Program-made: the position numbers and the translations under genes
Source of the DNA: Chara braunii
Lineage: Eukaryota > Plantae > Charophyceae
NCBI GenBank assembly: GCA_003427395.1
Contig: BFEA01000005.1
Coordinates: 231,149 to 295,148, forward strand
Direction: 5' to 3'
Length of the DNA: 64,000 bases
Notes under the pieces: generated by a model
Seen by the model: the letters and a program-made list of their open reading frames with translations, nothing else
Told to the model about the DNA's origin: nothing
Databases searched by the model: none
Part shown: piece after piece, positions 6,804-37,865 of the stretch
Numbering within the stretch: the first letter of the stretch is position 1
Layout of the letters: every line of letters starts with the position of its first letter

Positions 6804-6838
<35 letters not shown>

Positions 6839-9547: not shown

Positions 9548-9915
9548 GGTAACAAGAGGAGTGAGGTCTCGAGAGACCCGCCTTATTACATGAATCTGCT
9601 TTAAGTAAGAAAATGTGGTAATAAGAGGATCGTAACCCCGTGAGGTCTACCCTATTACCAACCAACACAAAAGGGTGGTGATAGGAGGAGCAAGGTCCCG
9701 TGAGGCCTGCCGTATCGCTGACAAATCCCACCAAAAGGAGATGGTAGTAGGAGGAGTAGATATCGTGAGACTTGCCCTATTACCAAATGACGTTGCTCAA
9801 ATAAAGGGTGGTGATAAGAGGCGCGGAACCTCATTGTAATCTGCCTTATCAGTTACCTACCACTGGAAGAAGAAAATATGGTAGGGGTGAGGATCCCGTG
9901 TGATTTACCCTTCTC
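9548..9915 (+). repeat. Hairpin array in LTR A: 6 units, ~66-nt period, YCGTGA loop with AGGA bulge
   Basis: Units such as TGGTAATAAG-AGGA-..-CCGTGA-..-CCTATTACCA at 9548, 9616, 9674, 9742, 9807 and 9879. Confidence 0.8.
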
Positions 9916-10866
9916 TGGCAACCCTTATGAAGACTCCGCAAAGAATAACTCACTGATATGGTTCATTATCTGATTCTGTTGAGGTGGAGGTAAAAAAAAT
10001 GTGACCCTGTGTTACCTGTCCTGCTATCTTAACCTTTTGATTCATATCCATCTTCTGATTATATTCCAGATGAGATTGATGATGTTTTGCATGTGCATGT
10101 CTTAAATAGAGAATCATATGATAAAGGGGAAAATATTGACGATGTTAGCTCTGTACTTTTTTTTCCTTTAGATGATTATCTCTAGAGATTGGTGTGATAA
10201 GAAGTTAGAGAGACTACCTAGAGGGAGTTATATCGATGTAGTATTATTCCCAACTAAAATGAAGTTCACAATATTGAACTTCATATAGGGTCATCTCGAT
10301 AGCAAAGGAGTGTTGCGACTGTGTTCACCTGTGTGTGATTGCAGATCACATTTTCTTTCAAGAGGATTCATTATGATTCTATACAAAACTACATGTTGTT
10401 GCCTTACGATAACAGGTTGGTTCGCCAACTCAACCCTCATTCACCCTCAACACCCACACTTGAATCGACCTTTGCACAAAAATATACTTATGATTTTTTT
10501 CATTGTCTAAATGGTTTGTGTTTGGTCAAAAAAATGTCATTGAAAATACCGAAGTCAAATATGGATGAATTACTAAGTCGAAAGAGGGATGTCTGACTTA
10601 GAAGTTGGAGAGTGTAAGGGTAGTATGGGTGAAAGTGAATGAATGGTTGACTGTGTTAGGGTTGTGTAATGTGATTGACTTCTGTTTGCAGGTCAGTAAA
10701 ACGACCAGCCACGCTATTCACTTCAACCCGTTGTGAAACTTACGCTATCTTCGAACTTGATCCAGATGTTTCATCAGTGTGCAATTTTATACATCTGGTT
10801 TGAGTACCCAACCTTGCGCCTTTTCCCTAATTTTTTTCTTAGGAAGATTACGATTATTGTTAAGGC

Positions 10867-11556
10867 CAGGGTAACCGACGTTTGGGATGGGCCGAACGCC
10901 CGAACCCGAACACCCGAATGTACAGCCGAACGTGAAAAAAAAATAAAAAAACAAAAAAATATCAAAAAAATCTTAAAAAAAAATATGTTATGAAAAAAAT
11001 AAATTAAACAAGATTTGTCTGAGTATTGCATCCGAATTCCTTACCAAATTTGAAATAAAAATAAAATACGAAAAACAAATGCTTATAGTAAAAATAAAAA
11101 TACAAAAATTAAATTAAATTTAGTGAGTGTGTGAGCACGTTTTCGACAGCACTATCTTTGGTGATTTTTCATTTCTTTTTGGAAAAGTTAAATGCCCTGA
11201 AAATTTGCAGATGTGTACTTCACATAATGCAAAACCCACTAAAAAAGTTTCAAAAAATAATAAAATTGTTTAGACCCGGAACTAAAATGAAAACAAAAAG
11301 TAAAAAGTGAAAAAAAAAGTGGGCCGACACGTTTTGACACCGCCATCTTTGGCGATTTTTAACTTGAAAATTTATAGGCATATACCTCACGTCATAGAGA
11401 ACTAAAAAAAAAAAAAAAAAAAAAAAAATTTAGGCCTCGAAATAATTTTTGGTGAGGGTCGAATGCCGTAGGGTTCAGACCTCGTACTGGACCCTGAACG
11501 CCCGTACGTACGAAGTTCTGCCCGGGGACCTCCGTACGTACGGGCTGGTGACCCTG
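10867..11556 (-). mobile_element. hAT-type MITE, family 1, complete inverted copy (690 bp)
   Basis: TIRs CAGGGTAACC ... GGTGACCCTG. 8-bp TSD GTTAAGGC (10859-10866) / GCTAAGGC (11557-11564). Confidence 0.92.
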
Positions 11557-12311
11557 GCTAAGGCAAAAAATATGTCTATTTCATATATATATGTTTAAAA
11601 GATCAATGACCCATGTTTTCCCTGATGAATTCGGACTGTTTATGTGAATGTGTTAAGTGTACGTGACGTCTCCTTGCCTAATTACTCAGGCTTATTTTAT
11701 TTCATATGTAGGTGATATGGCAAAGGCTTTCATAAGGAGATATGTTGAATGGATTTAATCACTAGGTGGGATGGGTAAGTGTCTTACCCGCGACTCCCTG
11801 ATGATTCCAGTATTGAGGGAATTGTGCTCCAGAAAAGGGATAGGTTGTGAGTCATGCTTATTGAAACTATTTTTAGTCTAAGCATAGTATGCGGGAACGT
11901 TCATCGGTCGAGTCAACCTGAATTGTAAGTTGGTTCGGGATATCTGAGTCCCGATGCCCGACACGTGTACGGGCCAGTCTTAGGTGTTCAAACGCTTGTA
12001 TGTCAATGCTAAGGCGATCAAGCAAACACCCTCGACCGACTTACCTCTGCGATTGCAAGTAAAAACCTTCGCACGGGAGTCGGTAGCTCAGTAGGGATAC
12101 GCTTGCCTAAGGATGACGACATTCTTAGGTAGAGGTGAGTTGTACCTCGGGGGGTGTCTGTCCTATCGCACGGAACCGCCTGAGGTATAGTTGGCGCGCA
12201 CGGTCGGAGTGATATTTTGCTGAAGCGATTTAAGACTCCTGTGTGATGCGACTGTGAGGTCCGACACTAAAATACTTTACGTTTGGGTGAGGGACCGCCG
12301 CGCCCTACAGG

Positions 12312-12331
12312 TGACGCCGTTGTCGGGGATC
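12312..12331 (+). promoter_or_regulatory. Primer binding site, tRNA-Asp(GUC) type, element A
   Basis: TGACGCCGTTGTCGGGGATC versus TGGCGCCGTTGCCGGGGATC, the complement of the plant tRNA-Asp 3' end, lying 2 nt after the LTR-terminal CA. Confidence 0.85.
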
Positions 12332-15300
12332 TTGCTTTCCAGCCGAGGTCCTTCGTGAACGGACTCGGGTATGGTGAAACGGTGATCATGACAAAATGAC
12401 AACCTTTAGACAAAGTAATGTAGCTCATGACGTATGAGTTGGATTATTGTTGGCAAAGCACTATAAATGTTGCACGTGTGCAGAGGTGTTGCTTCAGACG
12501 TCCTCACAGAGTGACAAGGGTTAGGGTGAGTATGAATCCCTAACACTTGTGAAATTCATAACGTAAATGTGTCAGATATCTTATAAATACTCATGTCATA
12601 GATTCTAAGAATAACTAGTGTTACTGGCAACAAGGTTAAACTATGATAGTCATCTGAGGTAGTGTCTTTAAACAGTCATAATATAATCTGTGAGAGTAAT
12701 CACCGTTACATGTTGATACTAGGGAGACCTTGATACTTGCTTTGTCTTCATGCATGCTACACACCCTCTTATGCCTTAAAACCCAATGTGATCTGCTAAT
12801 GGCAAGCAAGTTGGTCGAAAGAAGTGGAGTTAGGGATGCAAGGATGAAAGGAGGGACCTTAGAAGATGATGGCATCAGATATGTTATGACTATGAGATAC
12901 TCGTGTTCCATTATGCCTATCAAGTCACATTTTTCAACACATCGTGTAATTTATATATCCACATCTGCATCCATCTCCGTCTAAATCATTACTCGAACTT
13001 TCATATTGACTTGCACCCACGTTAGATTATTGGCAGCAGTCTCTGTCCAAGCTCTTTGAGGTATATAGAGAGTGAATCTTATATTATTAAATTTAAGTAC
13101 TTTCAAGACACCCATATACATACTTTACATATCATCCTTGACAATTATCTCTTGTTGGTCTTTATTACCTGCCTAAATCATTAACCTAAAACGTGTCCTA
13201 TCTATTGTTTAATCCGCTTAACAATGTCTGTTTAAATTATTAGCAAAATAATGTTATATCTCTTGCTCACTATCTTTGTCTATCCTCAACGTGCTTTCAC
13301 CTGTTTTGATAGTTCTAGGATCACAATCGTTTCCAGTAAGTCGTTACTATTATAGTAAACTGGGATACCAATTGCTAAATGAGTACGTCTTGTCTCCTCC
13401 AACTTTGCTTTGACACGAACCAATGAACCAAGATACTTCAACTGAAGTTGATGCGATGTGTCAGTCATAATGACCAAACTCATTTGCTTCACTAGCAATC
13501 CCATGAAGGATCTTTAAACTATAAAAGATAGAAGGAGGAAGCAATTAACTTACTTATACTCGGCCATTTGGCCACTCCCGTTACTATATCATGTCTGTGT
13601 AGTTCCTACCTATTGTTACTCGTACCGACATACCATGTTTACTTACACATTATACCTCATTAGCTTGGGCACATTAGCTTCCGCTAAGAGAACGCTTGCA
13701 AGTATTATTTCACTCGCGTATTAAAAACTTTTCATTATACCACCTAAAGACACAAAGATCAGACGTTGGAAGAGCAAAAGGAGAGCAACAAGGGAAGTCC
13801 TAATAGGCCTATTGCCTTGATAAAGGGTGAGAACCAGCAAGGTTGCACAATTGCTAGAATCATTGACACGAACATACGATGTCCCTTTTGCAGGATGACT
13901 TATTAATCTTATCGACAACACCACAACACCTCCCTAACATGTTTTGATTCCCTTCCTGTGCTTATCCGATGATAGGTTCCCCTCCTTCTATTTTCATCCT
14001 ACCTCATCCTTAATAGTTAGCTATCTTTCCTCAACTGCCTTACCCTATGCTTCCACTGTCATCGTGCATACATGATTTTCTCCTCGTTTCTCAAGTCACA
14101 CCAGGGGATTATTGCTTATGTATCATGCTTGCACTTTTTTTTTACATGTCACGACAATCTATGCAGGGTTTATCTCCTACCCCACCATATAAGGGAATCG
14201 TCTAAGTAGCAGCCATAGTAGGATCTAGGTGTTTCTTGTCCTGAACTAATAAGACTTGGGTGCTTATTCTATTGAGACTTCAATCTCTGACCCAGACTAT
14301 TGTCAAAAATCTAAGAAAATTGAAACCAGATTGACTTAGTGATATTTCTTCTCCTCTATATCTCATCATTGCAGTATTTACCCTGGGCGAAGAGAAAGAA
14401 TATCACTGAGGTAAGGGAAGAAAAATGATGTGTACTGTTAGTTCCTTTTCTAAAGTGAATGATGTGCGTGAATGTCGAATAGGCATTCTAAGCCCATGAA
14501 AAGGTGCATAGTTATTAAGCTACCTGCTTGAAGGTTATGTGTGTTTGCGAAATCATTTGTCGTATACTAAAAATTATAAATTTAAACTAACCCTATTATT
14601 TATTGCTTACATAGTCTAACTAGATCATCGAATTTTTGAAACTATATGATATAGATCCTAATGATAGACTCGGTGTCGCGACAGTTGTTTAACTTTTGAG
14701 GTTGTATCATGTAACATATGAATCCATCATTATCTGTTTGAGATAATTGTCCTCTCAAAGACTCTACTAATATGTTTTGATGGTGAGGATATATATTTAA
14801 AGTCAGGTAATTCGTGAAGTTGTAATGATAAAAAGTCATGTGCTTCTATATGATAGGTGCATTTATGTGATAATGAACGATTTTTTACTAGAGTCTATCC
14901 AAATACCAAGGGGTTCTGATATTGAACATGTAGTTTCGATAATCAAGCTTAAGATATACATGACATTGTAACCTTAAAAAACCCGGTTATAGCCGTATTA
15001 TGAGATGACATGAATAAATAAATGAAATATAGTTAGTAATACTGTGTTTAGTTGTCTCGATAGTTAAAACCCGACTATTTAGTAAACATCCGATTATAAT
15101 ATTATGCTAATGTGATAAAGAGTCTGATTGATAAGGTTGTCTTTTAGAAATATAATTTGACATGTAAAATATACTGAGATATAAATTAATTATTTCATCA
15201 CCCACTTAGTGACTTACTAATCCTTAGGGACAAATAGTATAGTGAGCGTAATATTAGGTCATCTACTTGAAAAATAAGTATCCATTTGAGGTGGTATGAT

Positions 15301-16460
15301 AGAGTATGATAATGAATTAACTTTTTGAGTCATTGCATAAAGAGTCTGATTATAGTTATATGATTTTGAAAACTATATGACTCAAATCGGACCTTGACGA
15401 TCGTTTAATCCTTGAAATGATATCGTGTCAAACATGAATATAAAACTATTTAAAATAACTATTTCTTTTAAGATTATACTCAATATATATTAGAGTATGA
15501 GAGTGTTCACTTGAGGGTTATCCAACTCCTCGAATTGCAATATTCTATAAAGAGTGATACAATTACTTATTACCACTATGGTAAAAGTGTATGACTGAAC
15601 ATGAATGAATGCATATGGGAATGAATGATATATGTTTCAAGTGACATATTATTGTATGTCTTGCTCTTTGTTGAGTGAAGTTAGAACTTGTTATGTATAT
15701 ATTTATTAATTGCTTGATGATTGTTTGTGTCTGTCTGTATATGTTCATGAATTGTTTTCTTCGATAAGGATAGAAAAACTGCATGAAGTCCGCGTGCGGC
15801 ATGAGACCGAAGGTGAATGGAGTGACCAACCTTTGAAGGGGAGGAATTCTTTCAAGGAAAATTTATATGCAGAACCTGTCATTCGAGGGAATTGCAAGGT
15901 GGATTGATACTTTTACCTGAGAGGCTTGAAGAGGGTATAATTAAGTCTTATAGACGGTAGTGAGACTCACGCCGAAACAATGTTCCTGGTTCACAATGAG
16001 GTATTGTTACTTTTTATTGTACAGGGAAGATTATTACAATATCGTCAAAAGGGAGGAAGGTGTTCAAGACCTTGTTTGAACTCTGGCGATGAGTGAGACG
16101 ACTACTGCTTAGTATGAGCACTCTTGAAGTGGTAGCCCGAACGGGGCTCATGCTAGGTGGGTTCACCACACCCTAAAAAAATATGGTCTTACCAATAAAC
16201 CTTTAGAAGGGTGTGAGTGGGGTGGTCTGACTCTGCTCGATGAGGTCAGCCATGTACAACTACTAAAAACGGAGGGAGATGTGGTGAAACTTGGTCCTAA
16301 AAGCGGGGCTCCAGATCTGAGATATTATCCTTTTCATTGAATTACATCACCCCTCAACACGATATACCTCTGTTAAGCCGGAAGGAGTAGTATATGTTGT
16401 GTCGTCGTTAGTGTTGTCTTTGTAACTTCTCTGTGATTGTTCCAGTAAAGTCTTAATTGT

Positions 16461-16634
16461 AGCAATTGATCTCATTCTTAATAAGGTTACCAGTTGATGT
16501 TTGTTTGAATAAGTATGATTGAATGTTCTGATATTGTATGAATTATTAGCAATTGATCTCATTCTTAATAAGGTTACCAGTTGATGCTTGTTTGAATAAG
16601 TATGATTGAATGTTCTGATATCGTATGAATTATT
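16461..16634 (+). repeat. 87-bp tandem duplication
   Basis: AGCAATTGATCTCATTC...GAATTATT present twice, near-identical. Confidence 0.95.
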
Positions 16635-17978
16635 ATTTACTTTCCTTATAGTCTTGAACATTTCTTCTACTATCTTGAGTTATAGTCCTTGTTTATGACA
16701 AAAGAATGTCATTTACACTTTTATTGTAAAATTTCGTAAAAACAGGAGGAAAACCCTGCGTAAAGTCACGAGTTACTTATGATATGTTTCTTCGTTAATG
16801 ATATCGATTTGGATGACAGAATGTGGTCTCATTTTGATAATTGTCGTCGAAAGAGTTTAATCATTTTAAGCAACTTCAACTTAGATCTGACTATTATGCG
16901 TACATTCATGCAATGTATGATTGAAAGCGAAACCTCAGGGATTTGTATAACGGTGACCTAAATTAAGTTTAATGTAAATCTTGAAATTATTTTGAGCCCC
17001 AGACTATTAAATATTGGGCGAGCACGAGAATGTGTCATTCTTGGAAAAATATCACAGATATGTATTGAAAAAATACCGCTCATTCATCGGTGGGATTAGT
17101 CTTAGATAAACCAGTGAGATCGAAAAGATGAACTCATTTGGAAATGTTGATGTTTTGAAAAATATTTTTGCATTGATGGTCACGAAGAAGCCAATATTTT
17201 CATTTGGGATATTAAAGATTTTGAACATTTTGAAAGATCCCCGAGACGTATATCTGACTGAACTGTGATTGAGACTTGGAGGACACGACCCCTAAGTCGC
17301 AATCTGACGATAGTCCTTGTTCATTTATTAAGTGGCAACGTGACAAAGAAAAGTTTATTTTTATGGTTTGGAATGAACATCGTTCATCCACAAAGTGACA
17401 ATCTGACAAGGATGAAAATATTTTGATGATTTTCTTTTTGTATATATCGAGTTGAACATCGTTCATCTACTTCAGGAGGTCAGTTTGAGGGACAAAAATT
17501 ACCAAACCTATGGTGAAAAATTGGCATCGTTGGGACGTAACTCCCAGCGTGAGCTGCTGACCAAGTATAACCAGACAACGAACTTTCCGGTTTGGCCTCG
17601 AGTTGAGATCTGAGGGGTGACCACCCTGATGAAGGAATCAACTCAATTAGTTACTGGAGGGGTCAAATGTAATCTTTGCAATATATAATTTTTTTGATAA
17701 TAGGGTTTACCCGTTATAGTGCAACCAAGACGGGGACCATCATGAATATAACAACATGATGAATAGCTGATCTGGCCTGATCGACCGGACTGTGGCGGGT
17801 TAAGACCAAGACCGCCGATCCCCTCATATTAGACTTCCGGTGAGACAGTAATACAGTTTTGGTTGAAACCTGCATCCGAAGGGTTAAATTCTCTGCTTCT
17901 ACAGACAACCAACGAAGGTCTGGGAAAAAAGTCTAAATATGAAAAAAAAGGTGATCATTGTCCCTCTTGGTAATTTTT

Positions 17979-18080
17979 ACTGTTGTAGTACAAATCCAGT
18001 ATTCCCACCCATTGGTTCATTGAGTTTGGTTTGGGAGTTTTAGTATGTGGGAGACCAGGGTTACAATCCCGACAATGGTT
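17979..18080 (+). ncRNA. tRNA-Asp-like cloverleaf in 3' UTR of element A (not a functional tRNA gene)
   Basis: Acceptor ACTGTTG/CAATGGT, TA-GTAC..GTAT D arm, TCCCAC/GTGGGA arm with enlarged loop, GAC, CAGGG-TTACAAT-CCCGA T arm. Confidence 0.7.
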
Positions 18081-18221
18081 GAAAATATGTGATGTTATCA
18101 ATCATGTCGTATTTTTATCAGTTGATTTGATAATGGGAAACGATCTAAGGGAAAATTGTATGAACGATCGTGATAAACGTTCCTAGCGACGGGGACGTTG
18201 CTTAATTGGGTATGAGAACAC

Positions 18222-18943
18222 TGTCAGACTAAATACCCTTACAAGAGTATTCGACCATGCTTTTGCAGTCTACACAGCGACGACATCGGCTACCAAGACG
18301 GGGCCAATTCAAAGTTCAAGGCGCGTGCGTTTTTCGCACAACACTTTGGAACGATTTCCTCGACCTTTGATGTCGGGGCAAATTGGTGAGAAGCTTTTGT
18401 TAAGTATGCGCGCGCGTTATTGTGGCGAGTGCTCTGATGGTTAAAATCGGTAATAATACCCTTCGACTAAAAGGGTTGAGGGGTCGATTGGGTTATTGTT
18501 GTGTTGGGTAGACCTACGACATACATTGAGACTTAATCGTCAGTACGTAAGTCGGAATAAATTAATATACGCCATGACCATACAGCGACCATACGGCCGG
18601 AGCAAACTAAAAGTGTGTGATCATCGGGTCTGCAGTAGCGCCCGGATTGGTAAGCACTTGGTCAAGCAGTACCTCTGTCCTACTTATATACAACAAGTGA
18701 GGTTGAGGCTACCGCTCGACTTCCCATATGTAGAGAGGGATTTGCGTCTTGGGCGGTGACTTCCTGACCGCGTGGCCACCCAAGCAACCGGTATTTCCTC
18801 CCTTTCGGAATGAAACATCATTGCAGACTCTTATATCGTCCGTATATGCCATAAACGCAGACTACTTGAATTGGTATCCACCTACCTACCGGTACTGGGC
18901 CTCTAAAAATGACAACTTTTGTCTTTTTCTGCTCGGCCTCGAG
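18222..18943 (+). repeat. Truncated 3' LTR of element A
   Basis: TG start plus conserved AATACCCTTAC hairpin; 18401-18943 matches 1994-2525. Confidence 0.75.
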
Positions 18944-22350: not shown

Positions 22351-22353
22351 ATG

Positions 22354-23613: not shown

Positions 23614-23646
23614 GACTCGTCCTCCCCTGGAGCGAGGACCTTCGAG

Positions 23647-24301
23647 CTAGGGGCGTAGGTGTGCAAAACGCCGAAGGGGTTCCCCTTTCTGCAGTGCCTC
23701 ATACTTGAGGACAACATACTTTGCAATTTTAAGGAGTTCCTTGCGAGTAAACCAATGATCTTCAGTATGCGGCTTGTAGGAAAAATTCACAAGGTACTCT
23801 TTGTTTGGGCCTGTACCTGACTCATCCTCAATTGACTCCACCTCATATCCCTTACCAGGGATTGGGGGACCAAACTGAGGGGGCCTGTCTGGGAATGCAT
23901 CAACCGAGGTGAATGGTAACAACTTGGATGCATGGAAGACAGGGTAGGTTTGCAGATGCATAGGGACATCCACAGCTTAGGATGGTCCAAAGGGATCAGC
24001 TCCCACTGTATCTAAAACCTGCCATGGACCCATATATCGTGGCAACAGCTTCAGCGAAATGTTCTCCTTTCGCGACAGCTCAGAACTGAGTACCCACACC
24101 CAGTCACCTGTGTAAATACTAGAGGGACATTTGTGCCTATTAGCCTGCCGTATCATAGCCTTTTGGGCTTTGAGCAGGTTGGCACGGACGCGCTCAATGT
24201 CCACACGGTAACGTTTGGTGAACTCTGCAGTTTCAGGCGTCAATGTGGGGGTAACCTTGTTGATGATATCATCGAGAGGCTGTTGTGGCTCACGACCCCA
24301 G
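23647..24301 (-). pseudogene. Chromovirus integrase C-terminus (GPY/F-like region) plus chromodomain
   Basis: KLLPRYMGPW, YPVFHASKL, YEVESIED...EYLVNFSYKPHTEDHWF. Confidence 0.9.
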
Positions 24302-25073
24302 TGTCGGCCAGAATACCCTTACAAGGGTATTTGTGCACATTTTTGCATATCGCAGAAGATGCATTTTTGATGATGTGTGAGAGAGTGTCTCATTTATGCC
24401 TGGCCATAACCAACTCTTAGGCGTTGGGAATGACAGGCGCATTTGATCTGATTAGAGAGTGTGTGGGCGTGCATTTTGAGGGCACGCATAGGTTTTAATC
24501 GAACGTCTAGTTATATAAAGAGAGCTAGACATATAAGCGATACCCCCGCCTGGTATCGCAAGTGAGAAAAGGAGTATGATGTTGAATGATATTGCGCACA
24601 CACTGAGTACGTTCGCGTTCGAAACCGGCATTTGATAATCGGGGTTAGAATTTAGTTATTGAATCCGCTTGACTTACTTGCTACGACACTAGGATCAGTG
24701 AGGTGTAAAGTGTCTGGCTTCTTAGGGCGACCATGATATTGGTCGACGGTAGAAGCCGTGGGCGGCACTATAAAAGTCGGGGTTTTTCCAATGCGTAGGT
24801 AGTAAGAGTGCGGTTCTTCGGGGGAGTTAGCTTAGTGAGAAAGTTTAAGTTTTTATGAAACGGCGTGGTTGTGTCGCATGCACGACAACGGTAAGTAAAA
24901 CTGACCCCTTCATGCAGTGGGGGCGGGTATGTAGGAGCCGTAGACATGGCCAGTGGGCCAAAGAACGACTTTTAATGCTATTCGGCAGGCCTTGGAGAAA
25001 CACGGATACCCTTTATAAGGAAGTCCGTGAGAGTAGGTTAATAACAGTCGTATTTTTCATCACCACTTTAGGA

Positions 25074-25254
25074 CACCCTTCACTACTTGAGGATGCAACC
25101 TGCCTAAACAGGTGGTTTTCAGGGTCTTCAAACCTTTTACCACTTTAGGACCATTCAGATCTAAAAATCCTGAATGGTCCTGAAGTGGTGAAAGCTACGA
25201 AGACCCTGAAAACCACCTGTTTAGGCAGGCTTCATCCTCAAGTGGTGAAGGGTG
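25074..25254. repeat. Long imperfect inverted repeat (~85-bp arms) with adjacent direct copies to ~25450
   Basis: CACCCTTCACTACTTGAGGATG...ACCATTCAG / CTGAATGGT...CATCCTCAAGTGGTGAAGGGTG. Confidence 0.9.
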
Positions 25255-27184
25255 GTTTTCATGGTCTTCGGACCTTTCACCACTTCAGGACCATTTAGGA
25301 TTTTCAGACTGCCAAAAACTCTCACTTGACCACTTCAGCCTTCACCACTTCAGGATGCAGCCTGCCTAAACAGGTGGTTCTTAGGGTCTTCGAACCTTTC
25401 ACCACTTCATGACGATTCATGATTTTCAGACTGCCAAAAACTCTCACTTCAAAATTTTCATTCCTGAATTTTGAGCTACCTGATAACCGCTTGTGAAGTC
25501 CGCGCCTGTTACACCCAAGCTTGGGCCTAGCCCTATAGGTTACGACTTTGAACTGATAGGACAACGATCCGTGGGTCGAAGCCAGCAACCCACAGTGGAA
25601 GAACGAAGGAGCATCTTACAAGGAAACTGAGGGGTTGAGGGTCCCGTGGTACTATCCCCCTTAGTTTTGTCGCAAAGTCCGATCGCGGGTCCGAAGGGCA
25701 GGACCGATGGTAGGGTTCCGACGGTCCTTTCCCTCTCGTCCCTTCTTAGTTTTTTTTCGATTACTATTATTATTATTATTATTATTATATATTTTTTTCT
25801 CACTACATCCCATTTTGGGACACGGTCCGATACCAGTCTCGGAACCGGCCATGGACCCAAGAGCCTAACTCAGTGGGTACGCCCATGAACTGTTGAAATA
25901 CAAAACCCGTGTTCGAACCCAAATGACGGAACTTGATGAAAAAAAAAAAAAAAAACCCCAGATACTTATGACCCACCGGGGCCCAGTCAGTTCGGTGATG
26001 ATATCTTAAGGCTGTGGCCCGGGCGTGGTCCTTCAGGACATCAATTAAAATTGGAACGATATAGAGAAGGCTCGCATGACCCGACACTATATGAAACAAC
26101 GAAATGGTGGGATCAGGTCGACGCTTGTTGACTTTTGACTGGCAGTGTTCGGGCTCCTCTGCTATGTTATCGTGCGATACAGTAAGGAAAATGACGATGA
26201 AGGTAAAGGAGGGCGGATCACAGCGATACTGATGAGCAAACCGTTTGTTGGATCGAGGTATAGGGACGAAAAACTGTAGAGCCGACGAGTAGCTGGTTCC
26301 CTCGAGAGCTTTCCCTCTGATTACCTAGAGCTGTCGACCGGTCGGCTGCGTGCACTAGTAGAAGAGGAAGGGCCGAATTTGGACGCAAAGTCAAGATAGA
26401 TGCGCGCAAAGTTAGGGAGAAGGCAGCAACGGAGAGAAACAACTATGACAAGGAGGAAGTTAGTGTTTTAGCCCGATTTTTGGAGGAATTAGGCGAGAAA
26501 AGAAGTGAAGTGGAGGTTTTCGGGGTGGGCGGCCCCGAATATGTAGTTAGATTATGAGGAACGTTAGTAGATTGGGAGATAAAAGAGAAAAAGTGGTGCG
26601 AGGGAAGGTTGAGAAAAATAGAAGAAGAAAAAACGAAAGTTGAAATATTCGGTCATTTCTCCACCGATTTGGGCGAACAGAAGAGTTGAGCTGGGGTCTC
26701 GGCATGTTACGAAGCAGATGGCAGACTTAGTTTTCACGTTAGATTAATGAACTTAGAGGCTATGGGATATAGGAGCCGTGCCTAGAGGTGGGAATCAACA
26801 AAGTGCTAACGCATTTAGCCATGTTTTAACATAAGATTTATTGCGACTTTTCCCATCATATCGATGAAAGCGATTACTCTCTATGCCACTGTGCGTACGA
26901 CTCAAGCACTACAAATACTTTCGGATTCTGGTTGAAGACTCGTCCTCACGCAGTCGGTGAATGGCAAAGTAGAGCGTACAGTCGTCGTCGGAAACACCTC
27001 CTTGTTCAACCGCCTCGTGTCCATGGCCACCGTTTATCTGCCTGGAGATCATGACTACCTTGTTCCTTGTAATCGTACTTTTCATTACGCCGCCTACGGT
27101 CTACCTCTCATCGATCGTGTTCCGTTAGATAGTGGAGTTTAAAATGAATCTGGTTGAACTAACCCTTAGATACGTTCATATACA

Positions 27185-27188
<4 letters not shown>

Positions 27189-27272
<84 letters not shown>
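27189..27272 (+). repeat. (GA)n microsatellite
   Basis: Seen directly. Confidence 0.98.
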
Positions 27273-27273
<1 letters not shown>

Positions 27274-29129
27274 AAGCACATACCTTGGAGTTGTGACGAT
27301 GCGGGATGAACCGGACGCCAGGCTATGGTGCCAAACTGCGTGTTAACCAAGTCAAAAACGATGAATGTAGCTCTTCCTGATTTAGTGGAAGACTCATCCT
27401 CATTTTGCAGAATCGCTGACCATCTTGCCCGACATTTAGCAGAGCTCACAGTAATCGATATGGTCACCTTGCCTATCACCATTCTCTTCGTCACAACCAT
27501 CGTAGCCGGGATCGCGCTGGTGAATGTGCGGGCCATAGTAAGGCTTCTCGAGGTTGTCGAGGGCACCTTTTGTTCAAAGCGCCGAACTCTCTTCCTTGCA
27601 ACACGTACTGCTGAGCCTCAGATTGTTCAACTTCTACCGTCCCTGCTTCGGGCTTCAGAATAGAGTAGTTGCTGTTGAAGCCTGATGTATGGCTCATAGG
27701 TCTGCTGCAACGGAACACCATTCCTATGTTGATCGCAAGTGAAACGGGTCTGCTGTTGCCAAAACTGTGTTATGGTGAGGTGTTGCGATAACAAGTACTC
27801 GCCTGAACAAGGCTGTTAGGGCTCCATTCGAAGTGCAGCTTCTGGAGCCACGACTACATATCTTGTGCTCATGGATTTGAGGGTGAGTGGACCTGGCTGT
27901 AAGTATGGTCAGGTACGTTAGTAGGTGTGGAGCAACGAATCAGAAGGAAAGGGTAAAAGTGGAAACAACAAGGAGATAGTAGAACGGAGAAAGAGGGGAG
28001 AGTGAGAGTGAGAATAAAAACCGTTTCCTCACAGACTACTGCTAGATACGACATGCCTTGTTGAGCATTCATTGTGCAGCACCGTACGCATTGTTGCTTG
28101 AACTTAGCATTGTTGGACTGTGCTTTACAGTAGGGCTCGGACTGTGTTGTTTTTTTGTTCCCTACTGCATCCCAGACCCTATTGCTATCAACACTGTGTT
28201 TGCTGAGCAAGCTAAGGTTGCACGGCTGCTGTGCAATGCTGCCTCGCAACAATGTGCATTGCTGAGTTAGTTGTGTATTGCTGTGATTCAGTTGACCCTG
28301 CTGTTTGCGTGGTGCTGTGCTTCGCTGCATATAGCTGCAAATAGTTGTGACACATTGCATTTATATGAACTGATGTTGGGTATTGCCATTTTGATGGGTT
28401 AATGCGTGCGACAACTGTGCGCACAACCGATTGGATCAGTTCTGCCGAATTTTGCTCGAGCAAAGAATAAAGCACGAAAGTATGCTCTGATCAAACACGG
28501 TCCTCCTAGGCTGTGTAACTACGGACTGGTCAAAAGGGGGTCACTTTTGCGACATGGAGGATTGTTAGGGGAATGTTATTCTGCATTCTAGCTGAGGTCT
28601 GACTAATTTTGTTGTGCGCTTTGGCCACCATTGCGGACCCCTCAGGCGATTTAAGATGTCAAGGCCCTCTCCAACGAGTTGAGTCTGTCTCTCTCCTGTA
28701 TCTCGAGCGTCTGAAACCCCTCCTTCTATCTTTCTTACTCTAAGTCTAGTATAAGGTTACGAGAGGAAGGCGGCAAACAGGATTGCAACCCGTAGGACCG
28801 CAGCAAGACGTTGTGGGAGGTTCACCCACCGATTGCGGGAGCTTTGCTGGAGCCTAGGCGGGGTTTTGGAGACAGGGAACACTCAGGTATAAACTTGTTT
28901 TACATGTGTGATCCAATCCCCTAAAACTATATTATCCTTTGTTGTTGTGTGCCTGCAAGTATGACTGAGAAAGCTAGCTATTTTTTATTTGTTTTGAATT
29001 CAGGACATGATCTGAAAGGTAAAATTGACAAGTATATACGATAACTAAGATAATTTGTGCGAATTTAGACAGAATGAATGGGGGAAGGCGGGATGAAGGT
29101 GTTTTGCATGTGTCTGACCGGGTCAACCC

Positions 29130-30435
29130 AAGACTGAATCCCTCTAAGTTGAGTGGGTTCAATGCTATGTTTTATTCTTGCATGTTGGGCTGCATGTGTG
29201 ACCTTTGAGGGCTGGGCCTATCCTAAGTTGGACGGTCCAACCGCTTGTTTTCTTTTGGGGTTTCTAAATAGGAGGACGAGCGCCCTAAGTTGGGAAGACT
29301 CAGATTCCTGATGTTTTTCCTTTGGGTTGCTGAAAATAAGACTGGGGATATTCTAAGTTGCGTAGACCCAGTTCTGCGTGTGTTTTCTTCTGAGGGGGAT
29401 AACTACATGAAACTAGGCGTACCCCTAAGTTGGGGCGGCCTAGCCATAAGCCATGAACTTAAAAGGTAATCCAAAGCATAAAAACTGATATATATATATG
29501 TATATATTATACACATCTGACGTACTGGCAGCCTAAGTTGGGAGGTCCAATCAATAAGTCAGGTATGACAAAAAAAAAAGGAAAGCAAATGAAGAATATA
29601 ATGTGAAAGTAACCTGGGCAGGCTGAACGTACCCCTAAGTTGGGGCGGTTCAGTCCTATGTCCATAATAACATAAATGGGGCACAAAGTTAGTATAAAAC
29701 TTCTTTATTTTTCGTTTTAAACACAATGCAGGGTTGGATGTCTCCCTAAATTGGGTAGGTTTTACTACCTGCCTAAGAAGAAGGAAAATTATAAAGTTTG
29801 TGCGAAATATTTATGGTTGTTTGAACTGTTGTTACGGAGGCTAAGCGTACCCCTAAGTTGGGGCGGCTTAGTCATACGTCGGCTGTAACTTGTTTAGGCA
29901 GATCAGGCGTACCCTTAAGTTAGGGCAGTTTGGTTATATTGCCTTATGTATCTTAAACTGTTTAGGCTAATTAGGCATACCCCTAAGTTAGGGCGGTCTA
30001 GCGATATGCCCTTTGTCGTTAATGTTATGTAGGTTGGACGTACCCTTAAGTTAGGGCGGTTTGACCATTCATCGTTTGTGTTCGTTGAGGCAGGTTAGAC
30101 ATACCCCTAAGTTGGGGCAGTCTAATCCTATGGCCTACGTAAACTTCGTTTAAGGCTGACTAGGCATACCCCTAAGTTGGGGCAGTCTAGTCTTATGCTT
30201 CATGTCGTCAGTTAAGCAGAAGTCAGGTGTACTCCTAAGTTGGGGCGGTCTGGTCATATGCTTTATGTTCACAGTTTATGTTGAGCTGGCCATACCCCTA
30301 AGTTGGGGCAGTCTGGACATACGTTTTAGTCATGTAAGCTGGACATACCCCTAAGTTGGGGCAGTCTAGTTGTGCGTATCCTAGTCACTTGCTTAGGCAG
30401 ATAAGGCGTACCCCTAAGTTGAGGCGGTATGATCC
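29130..30435 (+). repeat. Hairpin array in LTR B: 18 units, core CRTACCCC-TAAGTT-GGGGCRG
   Basis: Loops at 29145, 29224, 29286, 29354, 29426, 29534, 29636, 29747 (TAAATT), 29854, 29916, 29984, 30047, 30108, 30173, 30236, 30299, 30352 and 30415. Outer stems vary in sequence but stay complementary. Confidence 0.92.
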
Positions 30436-30978
30436 TATGCTATAGGAAAGGGGGTCATAAAGGGTTAAAAGAATTGAGAGATTAACGAACTACTTGGATC
30501 AAACTGATGTGAGATTGAGAGGGATGTTTATTTATGCATATTTACGGACTCTCGTTTGGGGGTATCTCTTGGTAGCTTTAGTTGCTTAGATGCTCGCCGA
30601 GTGCTAGAACCATAGATAGACTAGAATGGATGATGGGAAGGGAAGTGTGGGATACGATAGGACTGACCTTACTAGAAGTTAGGATTAGTGGTAGCTCACA
30701 ATGCCATCTTCAAAAGAGGATTGTGTAAACTATCACCAACTCTAACTATCAAGTGAGTGTAAGAAGTTAGTCTCGTGTGTAGTTGTACTTTGTTTTTGCA
30801 TTTTCAGTTTTGTATAAATTTTGGCAGTCTCCTGTTTCTACAGGAAGTGCCGCCGAAAGTTTTACAAATATGAAAGAGTTAGTCATTTTTTGACATCTGA
30901 AAATTCCGAAAAGACACTTTTCATACAGGAAGCGCTAGTAAAATTTTGTGAAATTTATAAAGTTAAATTATTTTCTGG

Positions 30979-31302
30979 TAGGGAAAATTTTGGCAAGATG
31001 ATATCAAAGTTCTCGAAGACTTTTGAGGAAAGTAAGGTAAACGCTAGTAAAGGAGATAGGCTATGAAGTGATGTTGACCCTCCATTGATCTTGAAGGAAG
31101 TACTTGGTCCGCTTTGGCCTGAACTGTGGTACAAGTCAACAATAGGGAAAACTTTGGCAAGATGATGTCAAAGTTCTCGAAGACTTTTGAGGAAAGTAAG
31201 GTAAACGTTACTAAAGGAGATAGGCTATGAAGTAATGTTGACCCTCCATTTATCTTGAACGAAGTACTTGTTCCGCTTTGGCCTGAACTGTGGTACAAGT
31301 CA
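30979..31302 (+). repeat. ~165-bp tandem duplication in LTR B
   Basis: TAGGGAAAA..GGCAAGATGAT...GGTACAAGTCAA present twice. Confidence 0.93.
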
Positions 31303-34300
31303 ATAAATTAGATTGAAGGTTTGATTCGTTCAGCCTGGTCATACGAAAGATCACTCTTCTGTTATCCCTTGCTAACAGGTCGGTTTACGACACAACTTTC
31401 CTGCTTCTGCACCTCAACCTAAGGCCTTGAGTCTTGTGGGTTTTTATGTTTTTTGGGTTTTTCACCCAGATTTTTTTCTGAGTGACAATTTTTAAAGACT
31501 GTGTACCTTTATTGAGGGTTGGTGGAAATTGGTTGGGGCTTGCATGCATAAGGCAGAGTGTGAGTCGCAAAAACGCAGTAAAGTTGACTTCCTTAGTGTG
31601 TGTGTGATGTTATTGTTTGAACTTTGTATGATCGCAGATATGCGTATAAGATCTTTGGATTGAGTTTGATGATAGTTTGAGTATTGTTCGAATGTTAATA
31701 GACAAGCCACACTACTATTGTAAGAGTGATCGTCTGAAACTACACAAATTTTTGCTTGAACTACCTTTGCCTAGCATAATTATAAAGGGAACCCTACAGT
31801 AGTTGTGAGAAGTGATAGTCCCATATTTCATAACCCCTCATATATGTATATGTACACATTGCCACTTACATATACGCATACTTTCAGTATTTGTACGGTC
31901 TGCTATAACCTCGTGCGAGAGTTAAACAAATTATGTCTTGAGAGAAAAATGGGATTCTCTTTTACCCTTTTGCTCTTTAGAGAATTATTATGGTTGAACG
32001 TTGTTGTCCGTGACAACTGTCAAAATCAAACCCTCTGATTTATCTCCAGGACCTGAACGATGAAGCTTGTCTCCAAGGCCACGAGAGCTGACTGCCACAA
32101 TGGACCGCAACCTATGTACCACCCACTCTCCGCAGGGTGTAGAAGACGGTGTGGTGATCAACCGCCTTGGTGGTTGTCTAGTGTCGAGAGATTAACCCCT
32201 CAAGGCGCATGTCAGCCGACACTTGAGTGTTGAAACGGGACCCCAGAGACTATCGAGGGTCGTGTAATTATAGGTACTACATAGTAGTCCGTTGTTGCGA
32301 CTGCGTACGGATGCTTGTATTGCTAGTCGATATGAGAAAGGCCTAGCGTTTCCATAATTTTATCTTGAGTTTTGTGCATGACGCCTAACCGATATTCATG
32401 TTAAGAGGTTATGGGTCGGATACTGAAGGGACTAGGAGAGTTTCGTTTTTGTGTGTATTTCAATTTTGTGTGGTGTAACGCGTGGTGAGTGGAATGCGTT
32501 ATCGGTGCGAATACCCTTACAAGGATATCCACCCTAGTTTTTGCAAGCAACATAAAGTAAGTTTGAATTAAAAATTAAGTACACCACATGAGGCGCAGGT
32601 GAGGCTGTGATTTACGTTGACTAGGTGGCCGACTAGAGCAGAGAGTGTGTGGGCGCGCGCGATTTTATCTCTTGATGATTGAAGAACCGGCGTGATCACT
32701 GACCAAATTTTTTTTTGTTCTGATTAAACTAGGACTAAAGAAATTTTTGTCTTTTGATTGATGCGCTTATCGGTGACTCGTGCGTATGTGCGGAGGACGA
32801 CATTGACAACAATGTGACGTTGGAGGCGTTTTGGTAAATCTACACGTCGCGCAGTATCTATTTTTGTAGGGGTCAATCGATGCTAGACTCAGCCTTGGGC
32901 CCAGTAGTATCGGTTATAGCATCGGACTTTCATCAGAGAGATTCAGGGATCGAGATCGAACGACGATGACGTGGGAATATCAGAGTAGAGAGAAGGGATC
33001 GAGGGGTTGAGGGCCCGGCGACGCTATCCCCCTTGATATTGTCGTCGGCGACATCGGGACAGTACTAGCGGTTCCTTTTTCTTATCCGTCGTCCGACGCT
33101 TAATTTTTCCTGAATAATTTCTCTTTCGGTTTTCAAGATAGGCGCGGTATCGGTTTTAGGGGTCATCGTGGCAGTCGAGGACCTTGCGCGCACCCCTCTT
33201 TTTGGTTGACTTACTAATTCCTATGTATTCGGGGTGCCAGTAAAATCCCTATGTCTTATTTGACTTGAAACGCGGGCTGACGAGTGCAATGAGCATGTGA
33301 GTCGGTGGGCGATTAGCCCACAAGGTGGGGGAAACCCAGACGGTCCGGGCTCTATGAGGGCGTGCCGCCCACCAGCCTCGGATTGCTACGGGAGGTTAAG
33401 AGTGTGAGCATGTCCGTTGGGATCAGAAAGGAGAGGTCACCATGGGTGAGTCTGCAGCGGTATTGTTTGCGTGGGAGGTGTACGTGGGACCCTCCACCAC
33501 GACGGTCCACAAGGTTCTCATTGAATATCTATTGCTGCCACCAAGATCTGTGTCGGGGGCCCGCCCCCGGCACTGTGACCTCTGTCCGTGTCTAGGCCAT
33601 GGGGCTTGAGGAGGAAGTGGGCTCTGCCTAAGAGGGATGAGCCAGGAGAAACCCGACAGAGGGCTGACAACGAGGGGCGACATGCGAATCGCTCGTCAGG
33701 CCTGGGCTGTAGAGGCAGGGGACGAACCGTAGAGTAGCCGGCCACAATAGAGAACCCCTTGCATAGCGTTTAGGGCGGACTGCGCTAGGCACTGTGGGAC
33801 TATTGTGGGCGGAAAGCTGCGTTAGTAGCTGAGGTAGAGCGGGGCGGACTGAGGGTCGGACGCAACGGCGAAGGGCAAGTTAGGGAGGAATAGACCCAGG
33901 CGCGAATTCGCGCTGGGTGCATTCAACACAAGGAGAAACAGAGATGGTCAGATGGTGAGTCGGGGCGCAACAGGGGAGAGTGGCCTCACGCGGTACTTCA
34001 TAGTTTTAAGCGAGAAGAGTATAGTTTTGGAGGTTTTGAGGGAGGGCGATTTCAGGTATGAAGTTAGTTTTTTACTTAGATTAGTAGATATAGAGGTAGG
34101 AAGAAAAAGGGTCACACGGAGCTATGGCGGAGGGAGAAGACGATGAGAGCGATAAGTTTGAATCTAGCTCGATCCTCGATGGATTCGAGCGGGATAAGAA
34201 GCAAAGTGGGGGTTTTAAGGTCGGGCGAGCGTAGTGGTAATGTTAGTTTTGATGCTAGGTTAGTAGAATTAGAGTTAGTAGAGAAAAGGCTTCTGCGAAG

Positions 34301-34727
34301 AGATGGCGGACGCAAAGAAGATAATAAAGGTTGAAGAGTGTGTACCCCGCTCGTTTCTGAACGAAAGCGGGCAAGGAAAGATCCAGATCAGGGGTTTTTG
34401 ACGAGGGCGACCTCGATTCCGCCATTAGTTTGAGTAGGAAGTCCGTAGAATCGAAGTTAATAGAGAAAAACGGTGTGTGGAGGAGACGAAGAGGAGGAAT
34501 GGAAAAAGAAAGAAAGAAGGTAGTTCGCCTGTCTATCTATGAAATCAAGTGAATAGAGGCTCTAGGTAGGAGTTTTTGGCCATCGCGAGCTCGATGGCGG
34601 GGTTACTTTTTATGATGGTGTAGCATTTAGTTCGACATGAGCGCTGGGAGCTACATGGCCTACTATGGCGGAATATCGAAAGAGAGTGATGAGAAAGACA
34701 GTATCGGCTTGTGGAAGAATCAAAACG

Positions 34728-35242
34728 GGAGATAAGGAGGAAGTGTTGGAGAAGGAGGTTAGAAAGGGAGGGGAGAGATGCTAGTTGGAGGTTTTTGGGG
34801 TAGGCAACCCCAGATCTGTGGTTAGATTAGGCGGAGAATTAATAGAAGGGAAGTTAGTATTAAAAAGGGGGCAATTGAGTGTCAGGAGAAAGCGATAAGG
34901 AGATAAGGAGGAAGTGTTGGAGAAGGAGGTTAGAAAGGGACGGGAGAGATGCTAGTTGGAGGTTTTTGGGGTAGGCAACCCCAGATCTGTGGTTAGATTA
35001 GGCGGAGAATTAATAGAAGGGAAGTTAGTATTAAAAAGGGGGGCAATTGAGTGTCAGGAGAAAGCGATAAGGAGATAAGGAGGAAGTGTTGGAGAAGGAG
35101 GTTAGAAAGGGACGGGAGAGATGCTAGTTGGAGGTTTTTGGGGTAGGCAACCCCAGATCTGTGGTTAGATTAGGCGGAGAATTAATAGAAGGGAAGTTAG
35201 TATTAAAAAGGGGGGCACTTGAGTGTCAGGAGAAAGCGATAA
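34728..35242 (+). repeat. 3 x ~171-bp tandem amplification (single copy in the 3' LTR, ~49781-49952)
   Basis: GGAGATAAGGAGGAAGTG unit starts at 34728, 34899 and 35071. Confidence 0.95.
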
Positions 35243-37139
35243 GATGGAGGCGATGACTCATATCTCGCCCGTTTTCTGAGTAGAAGCGGGCGAACGAAGA
35301 CTCTTGTTTGGGATTTGCGGGCGTGGCGAATCTGATGGTAGCATCAGTTTTTGTGTTGAAGTAGTGGGCCAGCCTACATCAGTAGTGGGGGCTGCGTGCT
35401 CGTTAACCCCGCTCGGTTGGTCGGGCCGCCTGTGGCTCCGCAACTGTTCATCGCTTGACGAGATCGAAGAACCGTCGTTACTTTACTCATCCTCGTACCT
35501 GCTACCGGGGTCGACATCGGGACCCTGCTGCTCGTTAAACTGGTGTACCTAGTTTCGATCCAGCGGAAGGGGGGCATCCGACTTTGTTTATGTTTATCCC
35601 AGGAAGTAGCTTGAGGATAGACGTGGGATTAGAGGCCTAGCTATTGGCCGATGCACTGCCCGTCTTGACGATGGGGGTGACCTCCTGCTAGCTCCCTGTG
35701 TGCATGGTTGAAAAGCAGCGAGTATTTCTATGATCTAGCAGATGATTCATTATGATCATGCTATTCTGGCAATGGAGGTGGTGTGGGGCCAGCCGCAGGG
35801 GAGAGAGTGAACCGACGTACTGTTTGCAACCTATCGAGTACACAGATACGGCGGGCTAAGTTGGATCGTGTGGTATACTCACTACATTCCATTGGGACAA
35901 GTCTCGGAGGGGGAGGAAAGGAGTATATGCCCACCTGCTGTTGCACCATTCAGCTGTGGCTGTTAGCTGATTAGGTCCTTCCTGTCCGTAGGCATTGCAG
36001 TGCTGCCCATAACTACCACGGTCAGTTGAGTTCTCATATGTGTGGGGTTTTTGTGTATACGGTGAAGTGGTGTCTGTGGTGCATGATCGTTTGTGGTCGG
36101 TGGAGTGGCGTTACCGGCTTAAATTTTGCTAACATGATAGAGTCTAACTTGTTGTACGACTACTGCAGTTGCTGAGGATCTGGTACGGTTGCTGCCGTAG
36201 GGTCTCCTCCATGAGTGTTGCGGTTCATCTCACACTAAAGTGTAAACAAACTATAGACTAGGATAACCTGCGTTATACAACAATGAAGTCGCTTGACTTT
36301 GATTGTTGTTACTGCAGTAGTATTGTCAGTACTACGGCATCGCGACATGCCAGTTGTGGGGGAGGGAGGAAGCAGGTCAGACTGTTGACCAGTGCGCTAC
36401 TTATCCTACTGATCAAAGTAGCAGAAACCCAGCCGAAAGCTGAGAACTCAATAAAGGCTGCACAACCGGTATCTGTATACAATCTGCCTACTGCATGGCC
36501 AACAAGGCCGCATTGCCATTCTATTGTTGCGAGAGAAAAGGGGCTACTATTACAAGCTGAAGGATCATTAGGGGACCGACAGTGGGACGGTTAACTTCGG
36601 TTTGACCAGACTACTGCATGTTCTGGCTACCATTGTGGGACCCTCAGGCGATAGAAGGTAACGAGGCCCTCTCATAGGAGTTGAGTCAGTCCCTCTCTCG
36701 TATCTCAAACGCCTGAAACCCCTCCATTTATCCTTCTAACTATAAGTCTAATCTTGTTCTGAGAGGAAGGCGGCAGGCGGGATTGCAACCAGTAGGACCG
36801 CAACAAGACTCTGTGGGGAGTCAACCCACGGATTGCGTGAGCTCTGACGGAACTCAGGAAAAGTTCTGGAGGCAAGGAATTGGAAGGTAACCATTGCTCT
36901 CCCTTTATAGACCCTATTATAACCCCTATTTGTATTCCTTGCTATGTTTTGGCTGAGTATATTGAGTGCGCCTTTGCTTTGACTTTTTAGTTCGACTTTC
37001 AGGACACAAACCAGGCTAAGTAAAGGAATGTATGTACAATGTCAGTTCCAGTTTTATTTTTTGATTGAAAGCATATTGTGGGATTGCATCTGGGGGAAAG
37101 GTGGGAGAAAGTCAGTATTGCATGTTTGACTGGGTCAAC

Positions 37140-37865
37140 CAGAGGCTCGGAGAGTCTCCATAAGATTCGAGGGCCCAGTGCTATGTTTATTTTCGATTGT
37201 CTGGAAGACCAGACTGGTTCCCATAAGATTGGGTGGTCTGGTTGCTTTGACTTGTGAGGGCTGCATGCGTTTGATATTTTTAGGGACCAAGCATTTTTTC
37301 ATAAGATTGGATGATTTGGTTACGTTGCTTTCATTGGGTTTTTGATGTTTTGTTAGTTTCTGAAAGAGAGTTGGACATCTTCCATAAGATTGGATGACCT
37401 TGACTCTCTCTTGTTTTATTCTGAAAGGGAATTCATGCAAAGGATTGGACATGTTCCCATAAGATTGGGTGGTCTAGTCTGGAGCCACGCACATGCTGAA
37501 ACAAAAAGGTTAAATTTGTTTATATCTTATACTACATATTTATGAACAGACCAGTCATACATTTTTCCATAAGATTTGATAATCTGACTATAACTTATCA
37601 CCAACTAAAGAGAGTATGAATTAAGAATAAAACTGTGGTAAAAAGGGACAGGCTGAATCTTGATCTAAGATGACCGGTTCAGTCATATGTTGCCTTAAAA
37701 GACAAAGTGCAGAAAAATATATATAACTTGGATACTTAAATGGTTCATGACGATTAGGGTGACCTAGTCACATGCCCAAAGAAGAGAAAAGTTGTAGTGT
37801 ACTGTGTTTATGTATATTCAATGACTAAGTTAGACAAATTTCCATAAGATTGGGTGGTCTAGCTT
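37140..37865 (+). repeat. Hairpin array in 5' LTR of C: ~8 units, core YCCA-TAAGAT-TGGR
   Basis: Loops at 37161, 37224, 37302, 37385, 37460, 37570, 37666 and 37845; complementary outer stems such as GACCAGAC/GTCTGGTT. Confidence 0.88.

Follow-up and report, generated by a model that had tools for sequence, protein, structure and literature searches.

Giant LTR insertions in the window

The subject of this analysis is a stretch of 64,000 nucleotides from Chara braunii (contig BFEA01000005.1, positions 231,149 to 295,148 of the forward strand), referred to below as the window, and in particular the arrays of short hairpins that lie within its giant long terminal repeats (LTRs). By self-comparison and terminus searches, we found in it three related Chara Ty3/Gypsy insertions, A, B and C, with LTRs of 8-9 kb. 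A preliminary description of the window had spoken of three "families" of giant LTRs; each of these is a single insertion here, and read depth points to many genomic copies behind A, B and C, although summed contig depth gives no copy number. The parts of the three insertions are as follows.

8600..12309, plus strand: 3' part of the 5' LTR of A, start approximate, ending CA, with a miniature inverted-repeat transposable element (MITE) inside at 10867-11556
12310..18221, plus strand: internal region of A, with patches 57-60% identical to the interior of C
12312..12329, plus strand: primer binding site of A, from sequence, homologous to the C site
18222..18943, plus strand: truncated 3' LTR of A, similar in its first 30 bases to the starts of B and C
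24302..32499, plus strand: solo LTR B, first part, from terminus searches and self-comparison
32500..40462, plus strand: 5' LTR of C, 7963 bp, nested in B
40465..40482, plus strand: primer binding site of C, from sequence; the same reading opens the Gag-Pol relatives P0036 and P0028
47550..54446, plus strand: 3' LTR of C, 6897 bp, with about 0.9 kb gone near its end
54447..54991, plus strand: solo LTR B, last part, ending CTCGACA, from terminus searches

B is a solo LTR of 8743 bp in total (24302-32499 plus 54447-54991), flanked by a 4-bp target duplication (CCAG/TCAG at 24298-24301/54992-54995). It interrupts the integrase of a minus-strand chromodomain Gypsy host exactly at residue 1010 of P0025; this host is itself a broken element (minus strand, 23650-24301 and 54992-59964) that retains pieces of Gag, reverse transcriptase (RT), RNase H, integrase and chromodomain. 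C is a pol-less element nested inside B, with an interior of 7087 bp and two LTRs that are 90.8% identical to each other. The 5' LTR of C begins with TA and the 3' LTR with TG, both end with CA, and the 4-bp target duplication contains one mismatch (GCGT/ACGT at 32496-32499/54447-54450). Target duplications are therefore 4 bp in both datable insertions, B and C, each with a transition at the first base, whereas 5 bp is the norm for plant Gypsy elements. The primer site of C may resemble the tRNA-Asp site of Athila elements.

A is a damaged, truncated sister of B and C that is 57-68% identical to C in its interior and at the end of its LTR; for example, its positions 11990-12402 align with 40124-40556 of C at 60% identity. 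Searches of the A internal region with tblastn and profiles detected no Gag-like or pol open reading frame (ORF) and gave no match. No purine run adjoins the 3' LTR of A or C (18188-18221 and 47517-47549), and a conserved ACGGGGACGT-GCTTAAT motif (GGGGAC) lies about 30 bases upstream of the 3' LTR in both elements.

A fourth LTR, D (L001), was recovered by a metagenome contig scan as one further locus matching a conserved block of about 260 bp that precedes the hairpin array; its contig ends after 10 hairpin units. The block had no locus in the genome contigs of the collection scanned, the two-hairpin pattern had none in viral contigs, and P0036 had no confirmed locus in viral contigs.

A covarying hairpin motif in B, C and D

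29127..30438, plus strand: B hairpin array, 18 units, the last 10 being a tandem expansion of 53-68 bp
37143..37868, plus strand: C1 hairpin array (5' LTR of C), 8 units, loop TAAGAT
51863..52583, plus strand: C2 hairpin array (3' LTR of C), 8 units

The unit numbers given in the preliminary description, 18 for B and about eight for C, proved correct (eight in each LTR of C), but the exact motifs attached to them, CCCC-TAAGTT-GGGG and YCCA-TAAGAT-TGGR, occur in only 7 of the 18 B units and in 4 of the 8 units of each C LTR. It is the loop that is nearly constant in B (TAAGTT in 17 units and TAAATT in one), where TAAG[AT]T was found 17 times against 1.2 occurrences expected from base composition. 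In each C LTR the closing pair is A-T in seven units and C-G in one. The ten units of D (L001:100-840, minus strand) have eight TAAGTT and two TAAGAT loops, closed by A-T in six, G-C in three and C-G in one, and minority closing pairs are present in B and in each C LTR too. Along the D array, the first eight hairpins carry the B-type loop and the last two the C-type, with C-like spacers throughout. C and D each contain one hairpin unit without its loop. Because D mixes both types and the loop TAAG[AT]T is common to 41 of the 44 units of B, C1, C2 and D, an invariance that is partly circular since the loop was also used to pick the units, B and C are, by their sequences, variants of one motif. 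Distinct codes for B and C were rejected, since D mixes them.

The 4-bp upper stem of these 44 units comprises 149 Watson-Crick, 12 G-U, 5 A-C and 10 other combinations among 176 pairs, corresponding to 91% pairing against 41% at random positions in the same regions. In the lower stem, a mean of 5.8 of 8 pairs are Watson-Crick, compared with 4.5 in the control. The loop between the arms is not palindromic. We then examined covariation in an alignment of 35 of the 44 units, which left out B8, three C1 units, four C2 units and D10, some of them degenerate. Compensatory changes occurred at all four upper-stem pairs, and the 33 two-sided cells were equaled in none of 500 shuffles, a test that related sequences can beat; with slid partners the covariation scores were far lower. 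A covariance model built from the 35 units recovered 8 of the 9 that had been held out. When folding windows were centered on hairpins, the mean z-scores were -2.5 (B), -2.8 (C1) and -4.1 (D), against -0.3 for spacer-centered windows, and z was below -2 in 28 of 36 hairpin windows of B, C1 and D; such centering was needed, as sliding 60-base windows in a fixed register singled the arrays out poorly. Rfam 15 gave no match at the gathering score in the whole window. The near-invariant loop on compensating stems supports the view that the units behave like a structured, protein-recognized nucleic-acid motif.

Homogenization of the hairpin heads

In B, C and D, units 1-7 can be aligned position by position; their spacing is similar and their identity about 75% or less. 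Similarity of the 30-base spacers is 0.62 for positional orthologues and 0.47 for spacers of one LTR. For the 14-base hairpin heads the order is reversed, with 0.72 inside an LTR, 0.61 for orthologues and 0.60 for non-orthologues. Heads thus group by LTR and spacers by position (p=0.0003, LTR labels shuffled per position), in a test that comprises three lineages, reads orthology from the alignment, and leaves out the duplicated D units and the B tandem expansion. The earlier claim that the motif is homogenized within each family is therefore borne out, and by this comparison the homogenization is real and confined to the head. Because spacers keep their position while heads group by LTR, the heads must have changed in concert without re-amplification of whole units. 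Such a change might stem from short-tract conversion in reverse transcription, or from selection exerted by a binding protein that has itself changed. Whatever its driver, homogenization of 14 bases next to spacers that keep positional identity is an unusual form of concerted evolution.

A different hairpin in A

9148..9918, plus strand: A-type array of about 9 units, 4 of them with exact YCGTGA loops, each consisting of a lower stem, a 5' purine bulge AGGA and a 4-bp upper stem

For A, six hairpins with a YCGTGA hexaloop and an AGGA bulge had been described, together with one unit upstream. Six units do lie in 9548-9918 and a further one at 9168, but the exact loop is present in only three of the six (9638, 9698 and 9763), AGGA stands 5' of the upper stem in four of the six, and two degenerate units at 9417 and 9467 had been missed. 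The nine units covary in a structure drawn by eye, with 74% pairing and 17 two-sided changes, a level that none of 500 shuffles attained, and fold weakly, with z<-2 in one of seven windows. This array is multi-copy in the genome, where other copies hold extra units, and it has almost no RNA cover.

Neither sensitive blastn nor a profile of the U5 region of B and C revealed homology between that region and the array region of A, and the covariance model of B, C and D detected no unit in 9100-9950 up to E 5. With the MITE subtracted, the A array ends about 1.7 kb before the LTR end, compared with 2.6 kb in B and C, and we found neither a homologue of the conserved block nor a TATA-like box behind the array. 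The shared LTR position asserted in the preliminary description thus holds by alignment for B, C and D, whereas for A an equivalent position is no more than plausible. Similarly, the idea that each family has its own motif fits A, whose hairpin is different and multi-copy, but not B, C and D, which share the UAAG(U/A)U loop, D having both the B and the C type.

Position of the array and transcription of the LTR

28622..28888, plus strand: conserved block of B, ending in donor-like CAG|GTATAA
36624..36888, plus strand: conserved block of C1 (putative R region or first exon), ending in donor-like AAG|GTAACC
37886..37891, plus strand: TATA-like TATAAA, about 25 bases behind the last hairpin

The conserved block preceding the array is 73-76% identical among B, C1, C2 and D, against 42-44% in the 500 bp upstream, and a donor-like GT stands at the same place, the block end, in all four LTRs. 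Following the block, the array occupies a position that is equivalent by alignment in B, C and D. Stranded poly(A) reads stack on the block in two of three RNA runs (13 versus 0.6 between strands in X5, and 32 versus 0.2 in X7), and these are sense reads if the libraries are of the usual stranded kind. The mapping covered 6-13% of each run; most reads were less than 95% identical, and hence derive from other copies. Summed DNA depth climbs at the block from 34-81 to 88,644. A variable U3 with a conserved R-U5 behind it would be expected to give such a depth jump and such stacked reads, so that the block is inferred to be R or a first exon and the array a U5 leader.

Coding capacity of C and its autonomous relatives

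42707..43393, plus strand: ORF upstream of the Gag-like ORF and fused to it in several C. braunii gene models
43694..44854, plus strand: short Gag-like ORF of C, with one predicted capsid lobe, a coiled coil and a basic RG-rich tail

All 24 matches of the Gag-like ORF were C. braunii proteins (41-65% identity). Its residues 35-107 match the capsid lobes of Arc, copia and retroviruses, the best being the dArc1 capsid (Z 9.1, root-mean-square deviation 2.5, 72 aligned residues). The 26 top-ranked fold matches were all of capsid type, with an E of 0.16 from Foldseek alone, and the underlying model had a mean predicted local distance difference test score (pLDDT) of 51, with 61-90 over the lobe. 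The upstream ORF has many C. braunii homologues; it matched no Pfam family and no Atlas entry, and its poor model (pLDDT 45) gave generic helical fold matches only.

No pol match was found inside A, B or C. Protease (PR), RT, RNase H and integrase (IN) families are carried by relatives, and all 120 of the PR/IN relatives listed are Chara proteins. Of 123 further proteins, 15 are Gag-Pol models whose Gag is matched by the profile of the Gag-like ORF, and a reading of the LTR end and primer site of C opens two of 147 models (P0036 and P0028), although such Gag-Pol gene models may be chimeric. From these profile matches and the shared LTR end and primer site, we infer that autonomous relatives with at least two Gag types exist. 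C combines the features of a non-autonomous Ty3/Gypsy element, namely direct LTRs, a target duplication, a primer site, a Gag capsid fold, and pol in relatives only.

Other repeats in the window

30781..30974, plus strand: second repeat array in B, common to C
38158..38731, plus strand: second array in C, with a period of about 120 bp, common to B and C, with predicted tetraloop hairpins of mixed stability

The second array (38158-38731, 52864-53618 and 30781-30974) was not seen in A; its tetraloops, such as UACG, UACA and UAAA, belong to hairpins predicted at -5 to -26 kcal/mol. A small inverted repeat of the ATACCCT-TACA-AGGGTAT type is present in all LTRs of A, B and C, about 10 bases in from the starts (24302, 32500, 47550 and 18222). 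In the U3 of B, positions 25074-25430 hold three 84-bp copies in alternating orientation, forming inverted repeats with arms of 85-95 bp at 88-91% identity, which are a possible source of hairpin RNA. Near-perfect tandem duplications occur at 34728-35243 (172 bp), 30979-31303 (164 bp), 53206-53466 (86 bp), 19778-20397 (310 bp) and 16460-16635 (87 bp); those of C are each present in only one of its two LTRs, and so arose during or after insertion.

The MITE inside A (10867-11556) belongs to a family of about 690 bp with CAGGG...CCCTG ends, also found at 6-709, 728-1324 and 6839-7600. Its copy in A has an 8-bp target duplication, which we take to be hAT-like. A high-copy repeat unrelated to A lies at 8170-8500; each of the three RNA runs has poly(A) reads on it, some carrying a 33-base tandem duplication.

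Possible functions of the hairpin arrays

We consider it most likely that the arrays offer many protein-binding sites on the unspliced genomic RNA; of the possible purposes, we place Gag-mediated packaging first and export by an accessory or host protein second. In the first of these, to which we give slightly less than an even chance, the arrays would act like psi, binding Gag multivalently in the U5 leader and so selecting the unspliced RNA for packaging. The conserved block would be the transcript start or R region, placing the array in U5 and thus once in each RNA, where many hairpins would offer Gag multiple simultaneous sites on genomic RNA; splicing from the donor-like site would remove the array from mRNAs. 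Gag of the autonomous relatives would read mainly the UAAG(U/A)U loop, and pol-less elements such as C would use the same signal in trans. Short-tract conversion at reverse transcription would make the heads of a lineage drift jointly, whether or not selection for a slightly altered preference of the protein also acts, and A would represent an older replacement of the whole motif. In the Gag-Pol relative P0036, the capsid domain starts about 45 codons behind the LTR end, which leaves little leader for a packaging signal outside the LTR.

RNA rather than DNA is favored as the recognized form because the fixed asymmetric loop sits on freely changing arms, and not because of the strand test. On the sense strand, G-U exceeds A-C by 52 to 16 (p=1e-5 against 1:1), an excess that loses significance against local strand skew (p=0.23), the LTR strand being G- and T-rich; C1 and D fold better on the sense strand, whereas B and A do not, B folding equally well on both.

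These last points on strand skew and on B weigh against packaging, and so do several others. The loop invariance, as said above, is partly circular. In X5 and X7, reads drop to 0-2.6 over the array and the remaining LTR, even in bins of higher DNA depth, and stranded cover of the array itself is at most 1.2. In X6, both strands of the LTR have reads, the opposite one more of them, roughly tracking DNA depth, and no splice junction appears among the RNA rows listed. The Gag-like ORF of C lacks a CCHC knuckle, which is present in one of its 24 homologues. In addition, TATAAAGGG lies about 25 bases past the last hairpin in C1 and C2, as does CATAAAGGG (CATAAA) in B, which is the layout of a Sirevirus promoter. 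Known psi signals lie mostly behind the primer site (in the 5' untranslated region (UTR) and adjacent gag, according to PMC12789967), and not as 8-18 copies in U5.

An extension of the packaging reading is that the arrays form an address code, as the preliminary description had suggested, in which all heads of an array would shift jointly, be it in the loop base, the closing pair or, as in A, the motif as a whole, and so keep pace with a cognate Gag or an accessory protein. Since one loop is common to three of the four elements examined, a family-specific code has only partial support, and we regard it as improbable. If true, pol-less elements would choose their helper, and helpers would escape parasites by switching the code.

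Rev/RRE-type systems depend on a mark on unspliced RNA, and the hairpins might likewise serve the export or stabilization of such RNA, in the manner of Rev/RRE or CERV, with the product of the 42707-43393 ORF or a host protein, and not Gag, as the binder. The same covariation and pairing fit this proposal as fit Gag binding; the array sits behind a conserved donor-like site, C retains an extra ORF with many C. braunii homologues, and Cer1 exports its unspliced RNA through an element-encoded protein (PMC10309623). However, no RNA-binding fold or family was matched by the 42707-43393 ORF, no such ORF was detected in A, and the RNA rows listed contain no splice junction at the donor-like site, and we judge this function unlikely.

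Equally unlikely in our view is a DNA-level promoter or enhancer cluster in U3, with transcription starting behind TATAAA at 37886. Sirevirus LTRs carry 8-32 palindromic boxes upstream of a TATA box, differing among families (PMC2829016 and PMC4728375). With a TATA-like box behind the array in C1, C2 and B and stranded RNA that scarcely covers the array, the promoter reading stays alive. On the other hand, an asymmetric loop is conserved while the symmetric arms change freely even within one LTR, the reverse of what a dyad factor site would show; the stranded RNA peak in X5 and X7 precedes the array instead of following the TATA-like box, and A has no similar box behind its array.

We give still less credence to passive slippage or template switching at hairpins in reverse transcription, which would amplify units, repair quasi-palindromes and homogenize heads without any function. 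The recent 10-unit tandem expansion in B, the variable unit number among A copies, the other tandem and inverted duplications in the same LTRs, and the loopless unit in C and D would all suit such a process. Nevertheless, seven units keep their order and similar spacing in B, C and D despite their divergence, and loops as well as bulges have been kept, although repair of palindromes would be expected to remove bulges and to be indifferent to loops; furthermore, the array has a summed DNA depth of 5,000-18,000, and the U3 upstream of it one of 34-81. Kissing-loop dimerization was set aside because neither loop is self-complementary.

Comparison with known systems

Multi-kb LTRs, an extra ORF upstream of gag, tandem arrays and pol-less derivatives are known from the giant plant Gypsy elements Ogre, Tat and Athila and from elements of the large retrotransposon derivative (LARD) type. 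The Chara elements resemble these in their multi-kb LTRs, the ORF upstream of gag, the tandem arrays, the pol-less derivatives and a putatively Athila-like primer site, and differ from Ogre, Tat and Athila in the 4-bp target duplications (two of two cases) and in the restriction of all 120 PR/IN relatives listed to Chara. Moreover, the arrays of Ogre are located in the 3' UTR and not in the LTR. The C. braunii genome paper reportedly mentions large Chara-specific Gypsy elements, and neither these arrays nor this Chara lineage turned up in a literature search that covered few subscription papers.

Among systems that handle unspliced RNA, Cer1/CERV of Caenorhabditis elegans provide a precedent for its export (PMC10309623 and PMC12786077). 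Like them, the Chara element is an LTR element with an extra ORF and splice sites (only donor-like in Chara) that would need a mark on unspliced RNA. Retroviral psi, according to PMC12789967, consists of stem-loops, bulges and unpaired purines bound by Gag. The Chara units share with it the bulged stem-loops, the unpaired purines and a putative location in the leader near the major splice donor, represented in Chara by a donor-like sequence, and the conserved secondary structure expected of psi was found in pairing, covariation and folding. Psi is described there as a single folded domain spanning the 5' UTR and the start of gag, whereas Chara has 8-18 near-identical units inside the LTR, upstream of the primer site.

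By analogy, dyad arrays that occupy a fixed LTR site and vary among families find their closest precedent in the LTRs of Sireviruses, which are Ty1/copia elements. Both have many short dyad copies at a fixed LTR position near a TATA-like box, differing among families and predicted to form hairpins. Sirevirus motifs, in the two papers cited above, have a conserved CGG-CCG arm core and CpG islands in U3. None of the 44 Chara units contains this core; unlike the Sirevirus motifs, they belong to Ty3/Gypsy elements, vary their arms with compensation around a fixed asymmetric loop, and add a bulge and a second stem.

For plant LTR retrotransposons, there is little direct evidence on how RNA is selected for packaging or how non-autonomous elements are matched to their helpers. 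The Chara array offers a candidate signal that is compact, covaries and comes in many copies, and its natural variants, three versions of the stem and loop plus one unrelated motif, can be cross-tested against several Gag types in the same genome. It is a real structured array, apparently undescribed, and akin to known LTR cis-signals.

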